A stretch of DNA of 64,000 bases from the NCBI GenBank assembly GCA_043821705.1, contig JBDRCN010000001.1, forward strand, positions 8,851 through 72,850. The letters are read 5' to 3'. The notes under the pieces were generated by a model that ran no database searches, was not told the origin of the DNA, and saw only the letters and a list, made by a program, of their open reading frames with translations. The position numbers and the translations under genes were made by a program. How positions within the stretch are numbered: position 1 is the stretch's first letter; every line of letters begins with the position of its first letter. Positions 2,339-45,714 of the stretch are shown piece by piece. The stretch comes from Candidatus Omnitrophota bacterium. Lineage in GTDB: Bacteria; Omnitrophota; Gorgyraeia; Gorgyraeales; Gorgyraeaceae.

Positions 2339-4399
2339 CTAACGTATCTCTACGCCCAGCTTTTTTACAAGCGCTTCTTGTACTTTCATATGAAGAGCCT
2401 GGACATCTTCATCTTTCAGGGTTTTTTCATCCGAACGATATTCTACGCTATAAGCTAAACTCTTTTTGCCATCTTGTATCTGTTGGCCCTTATATATATC
2501 AAAGATGTCAATGGAAGTTACTAGCCCTCCTCCTTCAGCCCTTATGACATTAAATATGTTTTCAGCGCTTAGATCATTACTAGCGATCATCGATATATCT
2601 CTCTTCATGGAGGGATATTTAGGAAGTGCCTTGAACCTGGTAGGTATTACGTGATCTATTAGTTCTTCAAAATCTATCTCAGCAATATAAACCTTGTCCT
2701 TGATATCGAAGAACCTGGCTGTCTTTTCCTTGACCTCTCCGAGACTACCTATCTTGATATTCCCGATCTTTAAGTCTAAGGCCATGTCTTCCCTAAAGAT
2801 AGTGTACTCGCCTTTTTCCAGCTTATAGTCTTTCACACCTAAAGAGACCAAGAATTTTTCTACCACGCCTTTCATGTCGAAGAAATCTATCTCTCGAGAA
2901 TGTTCTTTCCAATTGCCAGGAGTATTCCCGAATATAGCCATAGAGACCATGTTTTTTTCTTTTATCTCGTTCTTGGCCCTGTCTATACTATAGACCTTAT
3001 TGATCTCAAAAAGTTTGACAAGAGAATTTCTTCTATTTATATTCCAGCTTAATACCTCGAGCATCTCTGCGACAAGGGTTGGCCTCATGAATGCCTGATT
3101 CGCACTTAATGGATTTTGTAAGCGAACTACATTGTCAAATGATATGCCCAATGTCTCAATGCTAGCACGACTCGTAAGAGTATAAGTGACTACTTCGTTA
3201 AGCCCGAGTCTTGTCAATATCTCTTTTGATCTTTTTTTCAAGGCAGTGAGTGTCTTCTTTTCTTCTTCGTATAACTTCCCTATAGAAAGTCTTGGCAGTT
3301 TTGAAGGTACCTTATCATAGCCATATATACGGACGATCTCCTCTATGAGATCAATATCTCTTTCCAGATCCTGCCTATATATAGGTACTTTTACTGTTAT
3401 CTTATTCTTTGTCTTCTTGGAGATCTTAAGATCTAATCCTGCTAAAGATGCAATAACATCTTTTCTACTGATATCTATCCCTAATATCCTGGGTATCTCG
3501 CCTAGATCTAAAGATATCTCTTTTTCTTTTAAGATCTTTCCTCCTACATCAGTAAGATTTCCTGAGCACCTAGCTTTGGCAATATTCTTTATCATCTCCT
3601 GCGCTCTCATACTAGCTGAATAGACCATTGCAGGATCCACTCCTCTTTCAAATCTATAGCTTGATTCAGATGCTAGAGCTAATTTTCGTTGTGTCTTTCT
3701 TACGCTGACTGGGTCAAAATATGCGCTCTCTAAAAATATTGTCTTGGTCTCTTCAGTGATCTCAGTGTCCAGGCCTCCCATAATACCTGCTACTGCAACT
3801 GGTTTTACATCATCAGCTATTATAAGCATTGTAGGGTCAAGCTCTCTTCTTACACCGTCAATAGTGGTAAGCTCTTCTCCTTTTCTAGCGCGCCTGACAA
3901 TGATCCTTTGTTTTTCTAATTTCTCCAAGTCAAATGCATGGAGGGGCTGGCCTGTCTCAAATAATACATAATTAGTTATATCAACTATATTATTTACGCT
4001 TCTTACTCCCATGGCATTCAGTCTCTCGACGAGCCATTCAGGAGAAGGCCCTACTTTTACATTTTTCATAATGCATCCTACATACCTAGGGCAGGCTTTT
4101 TTATCCTCTATCTCTACTTTTGCCTTGCCCCTGGCTGGACCCTTTTTCATGTAAGATTTTTTTATAGACGCTGGCAGATTAAGAGTCTTCTTAGTAGCAC
4201 TGGCTAGTTCTCTAGCTACACCTATAATAGACAGGCAATCAGGCCTATTGGGCGTGATCTCTATATCCATGACATGGTCTTTACCCGTCTCTAAAGAACC
4301 TTCTACTTCAAGGCCTGTCATGGTAAGAGCTTGTTTTATCTCTTCAAGCCCTGCTTTTATATGGACAAAATCCTTTAACCAGTTTAATGTAACTCGCAT
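2339..4399 (-). CDS. pheT: Phenylalanine--tRNA ligase beta subunit (no N-terminal OB/tRNA-binding domain)
   Basis: 686-aa ORF whose N-terminus is MRVTLNWLKDFV and which has B3/4, B5 and FDX-ACB domain signatures. Confidence 0.9.
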   Translation of the reverse strand: MRVTLNWLKDFVHIKAGLEEIKQALTMTGLEVEGSLETGKDHVMDIEITPNRPDCLSIIGVARELASATKKTLNLPASIKKSYMKKGPARGKAKVEIEDKKACPRYVGCIMKNVKVGPSPEWLVERLNAMGVRSVNNIVDITNYVLFETGQPLHAFDLEKLEKQRIIVRRARKGEELTTIDGVRRELDPTMLIIADDVKPVAVAGIMGGLDTEITEETKTIFLESAYFDPVSVRKTQRKLALASESSYRFERGVDPAMVYSASMRAQEMIKNIAKARCSGNLTDVGGKILKEKEISLDLGEIPRILGIDISRKDVIASLAGLDLKISKKTKNKITVKVPIYRQDLERDIDLIEEIVRIYGYDKVPSKLPRLSIGKLYEEEKKTLTALKKRSKEILTRLGLNEVVTYTLTSRASIETLGISFDNVVRLQNPLSANQAFMRPTLVAEMLEVLSWNINRRNSLVKLFEINKVYSIDRAKNEIKEKNMVSMAIFGNTPGNWKEHSREIDFFDMKGVVEKFLVSLGVKDYKLEKGEYTIFREDMALDLKIGNIKIGSLGEVKEKTARFFDIKDKVYIAEIDFEELIDHVIPTRFKALPKYPSMKRDISMIASNDLSAENIFNVIRAEGGGLVTSIDIFDIYKGQQIQDGKKSLAYSVEYRSDEKTLKDEDVQALHMKVQEALVKKLGVEIR

Positions 4400-11121: not shown

Positions 11122-11198
11122 TGGTGGGCTCAAGAGGACTCGAACCTCTGACCTCTTCCATGTCAAGGAAGCGCGCTATCCAACTGCGCCATGAGCCC
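11122..11198 (-). tRNA. tRNA-Val (anticodon GAC)
   Basis: Minus-strand cloverleaf with the anticodon loop ccttGACatgg and a T-arm ggttcgagtcc ending in CCA. Confidence 0.8.
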
Positions 11199-11199
11199 A

Positions 11200-11309
11200 T
11201 CAAATTTGTTCTACTTCGCTCTTCGACCTACTAATCGATGGTAGAGCTTCGTAGGAATCATTCTTCGAAGCCCCACCGGAATATTTTATACTCAAAGGGC
11301 GTAGAAGAA
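11200..11309 (-). repeat. Repeat family E copy E1 (~105 nt tRNA-trailer element)
   Basis: Its reverse complement aligns with 36534-36640 (ttcttcttcgccctttgagtataaaatactccggtggggcttcgaagaatgattcctacgaagc...). This alignment is why the six-frame ORFs 11200..11391 and 36482..36691 share the peptide ILLRPLSIKYSGGASKNDSYEA. Confidence 0.75.
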
Positions 11310-11397
11310 TGGTGCCGGGGGTGGGACTCGAACCCACAAGACCTTTTGGGCCACAGGATTTTAAGTCCTGCGTGTTTGCCAATTTCACCACCCCGGC
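11310..11397 (-). tRNA. tRNA-Leu (anticodon TAA), long variable arm
   Basis: Minus-strand sequence gccggggtggtgaaattggc...ggacTTAAaatcc...ggttcgagtcccacccccggcacca. Confidence 0.8.
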
Positions 11398-11398
11398 A

Positions 11399-11479
11399 TT
11401 CAGTTATTAGATTTTAGTTATTAGTTGTTAGAAAAACATGCAATTCTAAAAACTAAAAACTGACAACTAAAAACTAGTT
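11399..11479 (+). repeat. Repeat family F copy F1 (imperfect palindrome built of agttgttag / ctaaaaact units)
   Basis: Second copy at 41360-41457, with shared core agttgttagaaaaa-N-ttctaaaaactaaaaactgacaactaaaaact. Confidence 0.7.
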
Positions 11480-11554
11480 TGGAGGCGACGATCGGAATCG
11501 AACCGATGAATAAGAGTTTTGCAGACTCCTGCCTTCCCCCTTGGCTACGCCGCC
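11480..11554 (-). tRNA. tRNA-Cys (anticodon GCA)
   Basis: Minus-strand sequence ggcggcgtagccaaggggg...ctGCAaa...ggttcgattccgatcgtcgcctcca. Confidence 0.75.
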
Positions 11555-29332: not shown

Positions 29333-29410
29333 GTCCCCATCGTCTAGCCTGGCCTAGGACATCAGATTTTCGATCTGACGACCGGGGTTCAAATCCCCGT
29401 GGGGACGCCA
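29333..29410 (+). tRNA. tRNA-Glu (anticodon TTC)
   Basis: Sequence gtccccatcgtctagcctggcctaggacatcagatTTCgatctga...ggttcaaatccccgtggggacgcca. Confidence 0.8.
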
Positions 29411-34952: not shown

Positions 34953-35837
34953 ATGCAAGAATTTAAAGTTTATGCACCAGCAAAATTAAATCTATATCTG
35001 GATGTAGTAGGGAAAAGGCCAGATGGAAATCATAATATAGAAACGCTCTTTGAAAAAATAGATCTAAAGGATGAGATAGTTATAAAAGAATCCAAGGAAG
35101 GTATAAAAGTAGATGTCTTTAATTCATCTTGTCCTTCTGGAGAAAAGAATATTGTTTACAAAGCCCTTGTCGCGCTTTTAAATGAGGCAGACATTAAACT
35201 TGGCTTGGAAGTGTCAATAAATAAGAAAATCCCAGTTTCAGCTGGGCTTGGAGGCGGTTCTAGTGATGCTGCGTCAGCATTACGTTCAGTTAATGATAAG
35301 TTTAAACTGGGGGTTCCAAAAGCAAGACTCTTAGATATAGCGAAAGGACTAGGAAAAGATGTGCCTTTTTTTATGATCGATGAGCCTTTTGCTATAGGGA
35401 CAGAGTGTGGGGACGAGTTGAAAATAATTGATAGTGATATCTCCCTCGCGCATGTAGTGATAAAACCAGATACCTCTATATCAACAGCTTTAGCATATAG
35501 CAGAGTTGACCTAGGAAAAAGACAGAAAATAGACAAAGGTATCAATAAACTGATCACTGCTCTTAAAAGCAAAGACATATCTTCCATAGAAAAGAATTGT
35601 TATAATATCTTTGAAGAAGCATTGGGCGAGGACAAAGATAACATAGAAAGTATTAAAGGCCAGGCCTCTAGAGATACTAAAAAAGAATTTTTCTTATCCG
35701 GAAGCGGGCCGGCTATATTTTGTATCATAGAAGGAAGAGATATGGCAAAAGCTATTTTGGGGAATGTGCAAAAAATAAACAACATGGAATATTTTTTAGC
35801 AACAACTTACAAAGGAGGCATCTATGGAGATAACTGA
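34953..35837 (+). CDS. ispE: 4-diphosphocytidyl-2-C-methyl-D-erythritol kinase
   Basis: 294-aa ORF with a GHMP kinase motif (PVSAGLGGGSSDAA). Confidence 0.9.
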   Translation: MQEFKVYAPAKLNLYLDVVGKRPDGNHNIETLFEKIDLKDEIVIKESKEGIKVDVFNSSCPSGEKNIVYKALVALLNEADIKLGLEVSINKKIPVSAGLGGGSSDAASALRSVNDKFKLGVPKARLLDIAKGLGKDVPFFMIDEPFAIGTECGDELKIIDSDISLAHVVIKPDTSISTALAYSRVDLGKRQKIDKGINKLITALKSKDISSIEKNCYNIFEEALGEDKDNIESIKGQASRDTKKEFFLSGSGPAIFCIIEGRDMAKAILGNVQKINNMEYFLATTYKGGIYGDN

Positions 35838-36249
35838 AGTCAGGATATTTCCTAAGGAGGGGCTTAACAACAAGCTGCGCGCGTATGCTACTATAACTAT
35901 AGAAAACGCATTTGTTGTAAGAAACATCAAGGTTATAGAAGGCAAGAGCGGACTTTTTGTTGCAATGCCATCGCGCAAGATGAAATACTCTTGCCCAAAA
36001 TGCAACCATAAGAACGAGGTAAGGAGTAAATTTTGCAATTCATGCGGAGGCAGCCTTCCTCAAGCGCATCATGAGCCCAAGACGCCAGAAGAACAACAAG
36101 ACGCAAGGCAGTCAGAACATAAGGATATTGCGCATCCCATAAGTGTCCAGTGCAGGGAATACATACAGAAAAAAGTACTGGATGCCTATGAAGCTGAAAA
36201 GAAAAAAGGCCCTGGCGTACCTAGAATGAGCGAAGAGTACCACGAATAA
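35824..36249 (+). CDS. spoVG: SpoVG family protein with inserted CxxC...CxxC zinc-ribbon and extended C-terminus
   Basis: MEITEVRIFP...GLFVAMPSRK, then the insert MKYSCPKCNHKNEVRSKFCNSCGG, then DIAHPI. Canonical SpoVG is about 95 aa; this ORF is 141 aa. Confidence 0.8.
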   Translation: MEITEVRIFPKEGLNNKLRAYATITIENAFVVRNIKVIEGKSGLFVAMPSRKMKYSCPKCNHKNEVRSKFCNSCGGSLPQAHHEPKTPEEQQDARQSEHKDIAHPISVQCREYIQKKVLDAYEAEKKKGPGVPRMSEEYHE

Positions 36250-36273
36250 TCGCACGACGCAATACGGATACAT

Positions 36274-36347
36274 TGCCTGGTAGTGTAATGGTAACACATC
36301 AGCTTTTGGAGCTGAGTTTCTAGGTTCGAATCCTAGCCGGGCAGCCA
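36274..36347 (+). tRNA. tRNA-Gln (anticodon TTG)
   Basis: Sequence tgcctggtagtgtaatggtaacacatcagctTTTGgagctga...ggttcgaatcctagccgggcagcca. Confidence 0.8.
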
Positions 36348-36399
36348 TCCTACGCCTTTCACGAATAGCGAATAGAACGTCTGGCTTCGGATGGCGAGG
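36348..36399 (+). repeat. Repeat family D copy D2 (immediately 3' of tRNA-Gln)
   Basis: The sequence tcctacgcctttcacgaatagcgaatagaacgtctggcttcggatggcgagg aligns with D1 and D3. Confidence 0.7.
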
Positions 36400-36512
36400 T
36401 AGTATTAGGATTCGAATGGAGTCCCGCGCTGACGAATAGGAAGAAAAGCTACGACGAAAAGGAGTAGCACCAGCGGGACGGATGGCCGACCCTGAGCGGA
36501 TGCGAAGGGCGC

Positions 36513-36533
36513 CGAATCCTAGCCGGGCAGCCA
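36513..36533 (+). repeat. 21-nt duplicate of the tRNA-Gln 3' end (cgaatcctagccgggcagcca)
   Basis: Identical to 36327-36347 but without the upstream T-stem or the remainder of a tRNA. The result is direct repeats 166 bp apart, resembling attL/attR. Confidence 0.7.
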
Positions 36534-36640
36534 TTCTTCTTCGCCCTTTGAGTATAAAATACTCCGGTGGGGCTTCGAAGAATGATTCCTACGAAGCCAT
36601 ACCGTCGATTAATAAGTTGAATGGCGTAGTAGAACATATT
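36534..36640 (+). repeat. Repeat family E copy E2
   Basis: Aligns with the reverse complement of 11200-11309. Confidence 0.75.
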
Positions 36641-36653
36641 AAAAAGGTGAATT

Positions 36654-37916
36654 ATGCAAAAGATTGCGTCAATTATACTTGCTGCGGGTGAAGGGACAAG
36701 GATGAAATCATCCATGTCTAAGGTCTTACATCCAGTATGCAATAGGCCAATGATAAATCATTCTATAGATGCTATAAATTCTATAGGAATAAAAAATATT
36801 ATCTTGGTAGTGGGGCACAAGGCAGATCAGGTAAAGAAGGCTTTGCCAGGTTTTAGCTTTGTAATGCAAAAAGAGATGCTCGGTACAGGAGATGCAGTCT
36901 TGCGTACTAAAAATATTGTTTTAAAGGATAGATCAATAGATTCTGTTCTTGTATCATGCGGGGATTCTCCTCTTTTAACAGGGGCTACCTTGAAAAAGGT
37001 CGTTGATAAACATATTGCTACTAGATCCGGGTGCACGCTTCTTACAGCAAAATTGAAAAATCCCACTGGGTACGGGAGGATCTTGCGCAGAGAAGATGAT
37101 AAAGTTGTTGGGATAGTAGAGGAACTAGATGCGGATATTTACAGTAAAGTAAATGAAGAGATAAACGTAGGGGTGTATTGCTTTAAAAAAGACATGCTTT
37201 TTGATGCCTTAAGTAAGCTCAAGCCTAACAATAAAAAGAACGAATATTATTTAACAGATGTCATAGAAATACTAGCAAAAACAGACATCTTAGTTAATTC
37301 AGTCTCAACAGATGATATAGATGAGTTTTTAGGAGTAAATACAAGGAAAGATCTAGCTAAAGCAAATCATGTAGCCAATATCAGGATAATGAACCGTCTT
37401 ATGGAAGAAGGCGTGACCATAGTGGACCCATTGAATACCTACATAGAAGAGGGGGTAGAAGTTGGCAAAGATACCATAATATATCCCTATACTTTTATAG
37501 AGAAAAATGTTAAAATAGGTTCGCGCTGTAAAATAGGCCCATCTGCAAGGCTGCGCCCTGGAACAGTTATCGATGATGAGGTTAAAATAGGAAATTTCGC
37601 AGAGCTTGTTCGTTCTCATGTAGGCAAGCATTCAAGGGTCAATCATCAGTGCTATATCGGGGACACTACTATAGGAAAACATGTGAATATAGGCGCTGGA
37701 ACCATAATAGCTAATTATGACGGGAAACATAAGTACAAGACTATTATAGAAGACAAGGCATTTATAGGTTCAGGGAGTATCTTAGTAGCACCTGTTAAAG
37801 TAGGCAAAGGCGCTGTGACTGGCGCGGGAAGCGTGCTTACAAAGAATAAGAATGTTCCTCCAGGAAAGATAGTAGTGGGGGTCCCTGCAAGAATTTTAAA
37901 GAAACATAACGTATAG
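36654..37916 (+). CDS. glmU: Bifunctional GlcNAc-1-P uridyltransferase / GlcN-1-P acetyltransferase
   Basis: 420-aa ORF with an N-terminal nucleotidyltransferase domain (LAAGEGTRMKS) and C-terminal hexapeptide repeats. Confidence 0.9.
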   Translation: MQKIASIILAAGEGTRMKSSMSKVLHPVCNRPMINHSIDAINSIGIKNIILVVGHKADQVKKALPGFSFVMQKEMLGTGDAVLRTKNIVLKDRSIDSVLVSCGDSPLLTGATLKKVVDKHIATRSGCTLLTAKLKNPTGYGRILRREDDKVVGIVEELDADIYSKVNEEINVGVYCFKKDMLFDALSKLKPNNKKNEYYLTDVIEILAKTDILVNSVSTDDIDEFLGVNTRKDLAKANHVANIRIMNRLMEEGVTIVDPLNTYIEEGVEVGKDTIIYPYTFIEKNVKIGSRCKIGPSARLRPGTVIDDEVKIGNFAELVRSHVGKHSRVNHQCYIGDTTIGKHVNIGAGTIIANYDGKHKYKTIIEDKAFIGSGSILVAPVKVGKGAVTGAGSVLTKNKNVPPGKIVVGVPARILKKHNV

Positions 37917-45659: not shown

Positions 45660-45660
45660 C

Positions 45661-45714
45661 CCTCCTACGCCTTTGCGAAAGGCTATTCGAAAGGCTGGCT
45701 TCGGAGGGTAGGCG
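45661..45714 (+). repeat. Repeat family D copy D3 (immediately 3' of bamA)
   Basis: The sequence cctcctacgcctttgcgaaaggctattcgaaaggctggcttcggagggtaggcgg aligns with D1 and D2. Confidence 0.7.

Follow-up and report, generated by a model that had tools for sequence, protein, structure and literature searches.

Why should the 3′ end of a tRNA gene occur a second time, a short distance downstream, with no tRNA in front of it? The question is posed by a tRNA-Gln(UUG) gene in a stretch of 64,000 nucleotides (nt), here called the window, from contig JBDRCN010000001.1 of a Candidatus Omnitrophota metagenome-assembled genome (MAG). A previous reading of the letters alone, the first-pass annotation, saw in the repeated 3′ end the mark of an integration event and offered two explanations: the deletion remnant of a larger island or a small tRNA-targeting element. 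Here we find that the interval between the two copies is occupied by a member of a family of small, structured, non-coding elements, for which we introduce the name X. Our preferred explanation, to which we assign a probability of about 0.62, is that window positions 36327-36512 represent an insertion of an X-family member into the T-loop of the tRNA-Gln gene, and "mobile T-loop-inserting structured element" is probably an apt description of the family. The evidence comes from family membership and a covarying fold, a junction fixed at C56, orthologous sites with and without the element, the identity of the original 3′ end, tandem stacking, and near-identical cores on tRNAs of different isotypes.

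A repeated tRNA 3′ end without a tRNA

The tRNA-Gln gene itself is called by both ARAGORN and Rfam, with a match to Rfam RF00005 at 36274-36344 of 66 bits against a gathering threshold of 29. Its final 21 nt, CGAATCCTAGCCGGGCAGCCA, are present in exactly two copies, at 36327-36347 and 36513-36533, and no third copy is found anywhere in the window with up to three mismatches; the number of repeats expected from 100 shuffles is 0 even when three mismatches are allowed. The identity can be stretched to 25 nt with 1 mismatch. On its left side the repeat starts within the T-loop (TT|CGAAT), where the tRNA reads TTCGAAT and the copy has GC followed by CGAAT. As the first-pass annotation had observed, the second, exact copy has no tRNA body: the 5′ strand of a T-stem does not precede it, neither ARAGORN nor Rfam calls a tRNA there, and no second tRNA or tRNA-like fold was found around 36513-36533. 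The 165 nt between the copies are fully taken up by a hairpin repeat, designated D, and the core of X. No integrase, integrase remnant, or cargo gene lies between them, and the open reading frames (ORFs) reported there are mechanical and overlap covarying structure. The surrounding gene order (ispE, spoVG, tRNA-Gln, glmU, prs) is conserved, and the nearest relative of the GlmU protein of this MAG is only 70% identical.

The first-pass annotation had suggested a comparison with related tRNA-Gln loci. GTDB genomes provided 27 related loci with tRNA-Gln and glmU, and the spacer between the two genes in these normally measures 17-144 nt. In the closest relative (L035), the tRNA-Gln is identical to that of the window and is separated from glmU by a 24-nt spacer only. 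In a single-cell genome (L008), tRNA-Gln is followed by two identical 138-nt units, each homologous to window 36396-36533 and each ending in the tRNA-Gln 3′ end of that genome; a further locus with the same tRNA-Gln as L008 (L011) has a spacer of 17 nt, and another (L026) shows the arrangement of L008 across a scaffold gap. The homology with L008 and L026 indicates that the stretch between D and the duplicate, together with the duplicate, is a conserved module and not a random residue.

These loci also bear on the idea of a tandem tRNA-Gln duplication in which the 5′ two-thirds of the second copy has since decayed and D and a second hairpin repeat, E, located after the duplicate, are ordinary trailers. 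Tandem tRNA genes are frequent, and a trailer hairpin does follow each of the two 3′ ends. None of the 27 related loci has two tRNA-Gln genes, however, what precedes the partial copy is a conserved X core rather than a degenerate tRNA, and the left boundary of the copy is C56 in nearly every member and isotype measured. We regard a decayed duplication as extremely improbable.

A covarying fold joins X to the tRNA 3′ end

The interval that separates D from the duplicate (36396-36512, ~117 nt) is strongly structured and conserved. We define the window member of X as 36407-36520 plus the 21-nt duplicate. The stretch after D opens with TAGGATTCGAA, the exact reverse complement of the T-loop and the 3′ T-stem strand of tRNA-Gln, and this 5′ arm pairs with the beginning of the duplicate to give the stem P0 (36405-36414 with 36513-36522, 10 bp, one G-U). 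Across the family, the anatomy from 5′ to 3′ is a tRNA, a spacer of 9-35 nt that is usually AT-rich, the arm, the core, and a copy of the tRNA 3′ end. With a length of 8-15 nt, the arm is the reverse complement of the T-loop and T-stem of the same tRNA that the element follows. The core runs from the junction GAAGGGAG through the long hairpin P2 with its 13-nt loop, the junction CGGGUGGCCGA, and the variable hairpin P3 to a terminal CGC; the loop CGACGAAUAGGAG and the junction GGGUGGCCGAC characterize this conserved three-way-junction core.

Almost every measured copy of the tRNA 3′ end has C56 as its first nucleotide, where the tRNA reads GGTT|C and the element GGCGC|C; the rare offsets represent misregistered or degenerate copies. 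Copies of 18 nt stop at the discriminator, and those of 21 nt extend through CCA. The window follows this pattern, with the junction GGGCGC|CGAATCCTAGCCGGGCAGCCA at 36507-36533 and a 21/21 match to tRNA-Gln. All five tRNA genes of the window (11122-11554 on the minus strand, 29333-29410, and 36274-36347) encode CCA, and family members from CCA-encoding genomes carry CCA on both copies.

Arm and copy are complementary throughout the family, with 365 Watson-Crick and 7 G-U pairs among 376 positions, and covariation is seen at positions 57 and 59, which vary in the T-loop. In an alignment of 26 sequences, 91.4% of the cells of P0, P2, and P3 are paired, compared with 71% in shuffles, and 19 of the 24 pairs have changed on both sides; when the pairing partners are slid, pairing falls to 33-46%. 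For 80 distinct sequences aligned to the model, 87.4% are paired, compared with 66% in shuffles, with double changes at 23 of 24 pairs. Not one of 500 shuffles attained the observed pairing, and the slid controls of both alignments taken together gave 32-46%. The covariance model of the family, R1, matches the window once in its 64 kb, at 36407-36520 (model positions 1-104), with 91.7 bits and an E value of 2e-19, values that include the presence of the window sequence in the seed. The L008 element is an independent homologue, and in its alignment to the window X the stems show changes that compensate for each other. RNAalifold suggested that GGGUGGCC might instead pair with GGCGCC; this pairing was not adopted, as it lacks covariation and competes with the strongly covarying P0.

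Where the spacer spans only 9-10 nt, its length implies that X and the tRNA would certainly be co-transcribed. The same short spacers argue against a promoter in the AT-rich spacer as a general feature of the family.

X is a family found at many tRNA genes

To collect the family, the stringent pattern CGACRAWWAGGAG-N(10-30)-GGRTGGCCGAC, derived from two homologues (the window and L008), was run on JGI metagenome contigs and returned 78 loci. Together with the genome locus L008, which contributes 2, there are 83 motif instances (81 in the 78 loci), about 55 of which lie within ~115 nt 3′ of a tRNA on the same strand. The covariance model finds 90 copies in the collected loci; among 80 genome loci it matches L008 only. 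The tRNAs that bear X represent 23 anticodon types and 14 amino acids, and all members are non-coding and fall in one size class of ~115-190 nt. The three lineages with taxonomy checked (the window, a peat subfamily, and a high-GC subfamily) all belong to the Omnitrophota, and X has so far been seen in no other phylum.

The family is apparently undescribed. No family in Rfam 15 covers 36348-36653 at the gathering threshold, matches at E≤10 on 36200-36700 are chance-level noise, and 20 other X loci gave no match at E≤1. A full-text literature search retrieved no description of such an element. Judged by eye, X does not appear to match hepatitis delta virus-like, hammerhead, or other ribozyme topologies. 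The core pattern found no X in IMG/VR, and a blastn search of phage and plasmid collections found nothing similar to X. A looser pattern gave 47 matches in IMG/VR, all of which proved to be chance matches in GC-rich coding DNA.

The census speaks against the remnant favored by the first-pass annotation, in which a large island at tRNA-Gln lost nearly its whole interior by deletion. A direct repeat of a tRNA 3′ end, with no tRNA body before the second copy, is in keeping with such a scar. But ~90 copies at 23 tRNA types have the same size, the same junctions, and the same covarying fold, which independent deletions cannot explain; no ORF fragments are present, and the element is all that distinguishes a filled site from an empty one (see below). 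The enclosed segment is thus a complete member of its family and not what is left of something larger, and a scar of this kind seems very improbable. The alternative raised in the same annotation, a small element that targets tRNAs, was essentially right.

Several further sequences resemble X in part. A variant core, GAAACGAGCGAACGCCGAGCGAAGCGAGGAAAAG, is flanked by a T-loop-complementary arm on one side and a partial copy of the tRNA on the other in L142:4566-4760 and on the minus strand of L128 (~3050-3090), which suggests that there are several related scaffolds with the same life-style. Simpler hairpins, which we call Y, have an outer stem GAUCCUGAGCG...CGAAGGACC, symmetric purine-rich internal loops, and the apical loop CGACGAAUAGGAG as in X. 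They are located in spacers after a tRNA or before glmU (L009:1-260; L018, L026, L015, L038, L027 on the minus strand, L199, L130, and L174), where they form clusters and can point either way. Often a small hairpin lies in front of them and base-pairs with the CA of the tRNA CCA. Their matches to the X model are weak, at 22-25 bits.

Assembly gaps are found inside X next to tRNAs, with 100 N at L026:1386-1485 and 10 N at L207:~1540. Deliberate masking of the L026 run was ruled out, its four runs of exactly 100 N being scaffold gaps. These gaps indicate that X repeats break short-read assemblies, and the family is probably under-represented in MAGs.

Empty and filled sites reveal the insertion and the original 3′ end

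A locus at which X is present in some strains and absent from others provides the clearest view of the insertion. In L145, an Omnitrophota contig, X directly follows pyrC and tRNA-Arg(CCG). Of the orthologous pyrC-tRNA-Arg(CCG)-LOG loci, those of L206 and L207 (PyrC 93% identical) are filled like that of L145, and those of L208-L217 (PyrC 89%) and L218-L219 (92%) are empty. Empty sites read ...GGTTCGAATCCCGCTAGGCGCG, followed by a trailer and the next gene. In filled sites the same tRNA is followed by a spacer of 16 nt, the arm GGGATTCGAA, the core, the junction GGGCGC|CGAATCCCGCTAGGCGCG, and a trailer homologous to that of the empty sites. The two states differ by ~148 nt, cleanly inserted and accompanied by an 18-bp repeat. 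For the window, the first-pass annotation was right to read the repeat as the trace of an integration into the 3′ portion of the gene.

Which of the two 3′ ends belonged to the gene before insertion? Where CCA follows one copy only, it is the downstream copy that has it (6 cases; upstream, 0). Where the two copies differ, the upstream copy always fits the 5′ strands of the tRNA, and the mutation is in the downstream, decayed copy. A tRNA-Arg(CCG) gene at L205:244-455 is a chimera. GCGCCTA, the 5′ strand of its acceptor stem, fits the displaced downstream copy, CTAGGCGCG, whereas the 3′ end contiguous with the gene, CCGGGCGCG, corresponds to an allele found in a different strain (the empty site of L218) and gives the appositions A7xC66 and U6.G67. 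The asymmetry of CCA, the native trailer behind the downstream copy, the decay of that copy, and this chimera together identify the downstream copy as the original 3′ end. They further indicate that the element travelled with the 18 nt that complete the tRNA and that the junction is internal to the gene. A mere duplication of the target site through staggered cuts, as by a casposase or in target-primed reverse transcription, would fit the junctions and is contradicted by the L205 chimera.

In the window, the copy at 36327-36347 would, judging by the CCA asymmetry of the family, the empty and filled sites, and the L205 chimera, have been supplied by the inserted element. The copy at 36513-36533 is then probably the original end of tRNA-Gln, and E its native trailer. 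The inserted segment can equivalently be read as 36348-36533, placed after the CCA.

The same observations bear on the possibility that X is above all a functional RNA co-transcribed with the tRNA, such as a small RNA or ribozyme acting in processing, as a decoy or spare 3′ fragment, or in sensing, with its spread being secondary. X is always co-oriented with the tRNA and directly 3′ of it, in some cases by 9-10 nt. Its three-way junction is compact, and the nucleotides of junction and loop are invariant, as is typical of ribozymes, aptamers, and protein-binding RNAs, and its loop motif recurs in the simpler Y hairpins after tRNAs. The ratio of G-U to A-C appositions, which bears on the question of which strand folds, is 40:24 overall, with 8:1 in P2, 17:5 in P3, and 9:9 in P0, such that G-U exceeds A-C on the sense strand of both P2 and P3. 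A function tied to the tRNA is more difficult to reconcile with the patchy distribution of X and its dispensability: sites are empty at 89-93% protein identity, only 1 of the 5 window tRNAs carries X, and the displaced copy decays. Divergent stacks of X (see below) resemble repeated insertion, and no Rfam relative hints at an activity. We consider a primarily functional RNA improbable.

Signs of movement between tRNA genes

Cores on tRNAs of different isotypes can be nearly identical while their arms differ. Core identity is 94% between Arg-CCG and a Tyr-type site, 90% between Arg-CCG and Leu-GAG, and 93% between Ala-CGC and Val-CAC, whereas orthologous copies in some different strains are less alike, at 89%. 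Tandem stacks of X are common and are found in L008, L142, L128, L175, L194, L203, L134, L180, and L141. Within a stack, the copies share one sequence in L008 and L142 but have diverged in L194, L203, L134/L155, L180, and L141. The L134 stack (157-991, also present in L155) follows a tRNA with a group I intron (Rfam, 82.8 bits) and consists of three small elements: one called Z, which ends in a 15-nt partial tRNA copy, and two X of different sequence, each ending in a tRNA 3′ end. Like Z, the variant cores described above terminate in partial tRNA copies.

Stacking of this sort, an 18-21-bp repeat that reaches from the T-loop to the gene end, and a 3′ end carried by the element are the classical signature of tRNA islands. 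X could accordingly be a non-autonomous attP module of double-stranded DNA (dsDNA), mobilized in trans by a tyrosine integrase, with its core providing protein-binding arm sites. Excisionase and integrase genes do adjoin X-bearing tRNAs at three loci: L161 (minus strand, integrase at reverse-complement positions 580-1714), L143, and L138 each have an AlpA-like excisionase and a tyrosine integrase of ~375 residues 15-100 nt 5′ of the tRNA on the same strand. This position 5′ of the tRNA suggests that they are probably an unrelated island on the same tRNAs, and integrases are adjacent in only 3 of the 78 loci. In addition, the compensatory changes of the core point to a folded single strand rather than to binding sites in dsDNA, a dsDNA circle of 115-150 bp would be a very poor substrate for recombination, and neither IMG/VR nor the phage and plasmid collections yielded a viral or plasmid X that could serve as attP. 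There is, in our view, only a small chance that X is such a module.

A possible route of insertion

If X is a mobile T-loop-inserting element, it would enter between T55 and C56. The left end of X would bring a replacement for tRNA nucleotides 56-73 (or 56-76 with CCA), so that the tRNA stays intact, and the original 3′ end with its native trailer (E in the window) would be pushed to the right end. X is too small to encode proteins or to circularize easily as a duplex, and what is conserved is a folded single strand; movement may therefore proceed through such a strand, either single-stranded DNA (ssDNA) or RNA copied to DNA. Folded into the three-way junction, this strand would display P0 as a double-stranded replica of the T-loop/T-stem segment of the gene. 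P0 could then act as a target mimic for a trans-acting enzyme, either a recombinase or a nuclease with site specificity, by which strands are exchanged at T55|C56. Replication would fix the insertion, and the regenerated, intact T-loop could be hit again, giving rise to stacks. Such a scheme needs the fewest assumptions and parallels the use of CTX-phi and integron attC hairpins by host recombinases, but in this specific form, with a P0 mimic and a trans-acting enzyme at T55|C56, it is rather unlikely to be correct.

A bolder possibility, which we put forward tentatively and do not consider likely, is that X represents a new kind of insertion system, programmable and guided by nucleic acid. 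In such a system, an RNA or ssDNA scaffold of ~100 nt would select the T-loop of one tRNA gene by pairing with its 5′ arm, and its 3′ end would be the target sequence. It might be moved by an Omnitrophota enzyme, be partly self-catalyzed, or behave like a removable T-loop intron. Retargeting to any tRNA would be possible with the gene kept functional.

Several points weigh against X as a mobile T-loop-inserting element. The G-U/A-C asymmetry indicates the folding strand only weakly, such that RNA and ssDNA are both possible. No mobilizing enzyme is found within X or beside it: family members contain no ORF remnants, and all-against-all clustering of 781 ORFs from the 78 loci revealed no protein family near X beyond local synteny. 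A carried 3′ end should yield non-functional chimeras in other tRNAs, yet it is matched on 23 anticodon types. The matching of arm and carried 3′ end to 23 tRNAs could possibly be due to gene conversion of the core, to hairpin-templated correction, or to a templated step. Gene conversion between cores within a genome could also mimic recent jumps, presence and absence have no direction given that an 18-bp repeat could equally mediate precise deletion, and the lone L205 chimera could have come from homologous recombination between strains. Finally, collection of the family with a motif from two sequences means that its breadth and its restriction to Omnitrophota are under-sampled.

Hairpins D and E and other features of the window

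The coordinates of X and of the repeats around it are collected in Table 1.

Table 1. Positions of the tRNA-Gln gene, X, and the D and E repeats in the window
Feature	Position	Strand	Description
tRNA-Gln(UUG)	36274-36347	+	Complete, CCA-encoding (ARAGORN; Rfam RF00005)
Putative inserted segment (T-loop insertion), 186 nt	36327-36512	+	Replacement 3′ end, D, short spacer, X arm and core
D	36345-36395 (36348-36395 after CCA)	+	Hairpin; spacer position of X
5′ arm of X ("inverse")	36405-36416	+	Reverse complement of tRNA-Gln T-loop and 3′ T-stem; inverted repeat I4 (36406-36416), 11/11
X core	36417-36512	+	J0/2 AUGGAG, P2, J2/3, P3, J3/0 (covariance model R1)
P2 of X	36421-36479	+	Apical loop CGACGAAAAGGAG
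J2/3 of X	36480-36489	+	GGAUGGCCGA
P3 hairpin of X	36490-36509	+	
J3/0 of X	36510-36512	+	CGC
Probable displaced original 3′ end of tRNA-Gln, C56 to A76	36513-36533	+	Exact 21-nt repeat; also 3′ arm of P0 and single-stranded tail
E	36534-36640	+	Two hairpins, ~36532-36584 and 36589-36632
D copy 2	11124-11075	-	88%; directly after CCA of tRNA-Val(GAC)
D copy 3	45660-45708	+	78%; after stop codon of bamA-like gene, no tRNA adjacent
E copy 2	11309-11203	-	86%; directly after CCA of tRNA-Leu(UAA), before tRNA-Val

The recurrence of D and E at tRNA-Val and tRNA-Leu on the other strand, and of D after bamA, which the first-pass annotation had pointed out, is confirmed at 78-88% identity. Both repeats start with the CCA of the tRNA itself, onto which their 3′ arms pair back, and both have a 3x3 internal loop and CUAC/GUAG-like feet. 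D has a stem CCAUCC...GGAUGG and is followed by GAGGUAG; in the copy after bamA the stem is kept as CCCUCC/GGAGGG. The two copies of E, which in the tRNA-Gln locus is followed by AACAUAUUAAAAAGG, adopt the same fold (z of -4.4 and -3.95), and base changes in the second hairpin compensate for each other.

The proposal that D and E are the mobile part, or that they are terminator cassettes, did not survive closer inspection. E-like hairpins lie directly 3′ of tRNA-Gln in L007, L010, L019, and L008, and in the first three of these there is no 3′-end duplicate, which argues that D and E are separate hairpins and do not generate the duplicate. Folding does yield hairpins, but no U-tract follows either D or E, and 0 terminator-like sites are present in 36100-36800. 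At L019:5731-6000, two tandem E-like double hairpins of ~125 nt directly follow tRNA-Gln, with no duplicate of the tRNA, indicating that trailer hairpins amplify on their own. A gapped D pattern had 0 matches in the GTDB genomes, a set of which the source genome is not part. D and E are typical trailer hairpins of this clade, unrelated to X, and may either be similar to repetitive extragenic palindromic (REP) sequences, which carry a conserved GTAG/CTAC and go with a RAYT transposase in the genome, or serve in processing or stability. The D of the window could be either cargo of the element or a later insertion behind the new CCA.

Two other features of the window deserve mention. The SpoVG homologue upstream of tRNA-Gln (35824-36249, plus strand) has a zinc-ribbon insertion at residues ~54-79, within the SpoVG domain. 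A 6S (SsrS) RNA gene is present at 1894-2079 on the minus strand, with 94.4 bits over the full model.

X in relation to known mobile elements

If the insertion of X is as we propose, it would represent a new class of non-coding mobile element or RNA motif in a poorly known phylum, and it would account for stray fragments of tRNA 3′ ends and for assembly gaps beside tRNAs in Omnitrophota genomes. It would point to a site-specific activity at T55|C56 of tRNA genes and to a natural form of sequence-addressed insertion in which specificity changes over a constant scaffold, the reading of the target being directly testable. The covariance model R1 can already be used in annotation to mask X and avoid false pseudo-tRNAs or "att scars."

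Small non-coding elements that occur in many copies and depend on factors encoded elsewhere are well-known, and include miniature inverted-repeat transposable elements (MITEs), the palindrome-associated transposable elements (PATEs) derived from IS200/IS605, and REP sequences with the bacterial interspersed mosaic elements composed of them. X is likewise small, non-coding, multi-copy, and rich in hairpins. IS200/IS605 elements have a short guide, located beside a hairpin, that pairs with the site to be cleaved or targeted, and the arm of X could do the same. These elements generate a duplication of 2-10 bp or none, however, compared with 18-21 nt bounded by tRNA landmarks in X, and the arm of X is matched to its target over 8-15 nt. 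The inverted arms of X are the target-matched arms of P0 only, and no relative of a transposase and no autonomous relative was found near the family, such that X does not qualify as a MITE.

In two systems, the bridge RNA of IS110 and the pairing of exon- and intron-binding sites (EBS-IBS) in group II introns, a segment of the element pairs with the target. As with X, this segment is complementary to the target, and specificity varies over a nearly identical scaffold. Unlike these systems, X has no ORF for a recombinase or reverse transcriptase, and its arm and 3′ segment are both directed at one part of the target instead of at its two flanks. Casposons also prefer tRNA genes and are large and protein-coding. 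Dada elements, which are eukaryotic DNA transposons, produce 6-7-bp duplications in the A box or the anticodon arm and disrupt multicopy genes, with related elements using orthologous positions in different tRNA types (PMC8869645). What casposons and Dada have in common with X is the use of tRNA genes as safe, conserved landing sites; X differs in being non-coding and in restoring a single-copy tRNA.

The closest parallel in architecture appears to be with folded single-strand recombination sites, namely, attP(+) of CTX-phi, which is used with XerCD, the sites of other integrative mobile elements exploiting Xer, and the attC sites of integrons, all of which rely on a recombinase of the host or a partner. 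In these sites, as in X, inverted arms (~90-100 nt apart in X) rebuild a target duplex, structure is conserved over sequence, and the site is non-coding. Insertion is oriented and strand-specific, and arrays are built by successive insertion. The likeness is architectural only: X has neither a dif/Xer site, IntI, nor a G|TT crossover, and its junction is T55|C56.

In the outcome of insertion, X resembles the elements for which tRNA genes are the classic landing pads, the large integrative elements. P4-type islands, prophages, and integrative and conjugative elements use a tyrosine integrase and sites in tRNA genes that extend from the T-loop to the 3′ end. They share with X a repeat of 18-21 nt that starts in the T-loop, a 3′ end supplied by the element, a displaced end with its trailer, and tandem stacks. 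Such islands span kilobases and encode an integrase, whereas X is 115-190 nt long, has no ORF, and adds a covarying fold and a complementary arm; moreover, a single core lineage of X is found on many tRNA isotypes. X can thus be regarded as a miniature, structured, non-coding tRNA-integrating element, similar to an island reduced to a non-coding scaffold of ~100 nt. With no gene, a target-matched arm, and a built-in spare 3′ end, it looks like the smallest version of the tRNA-landing life-style.

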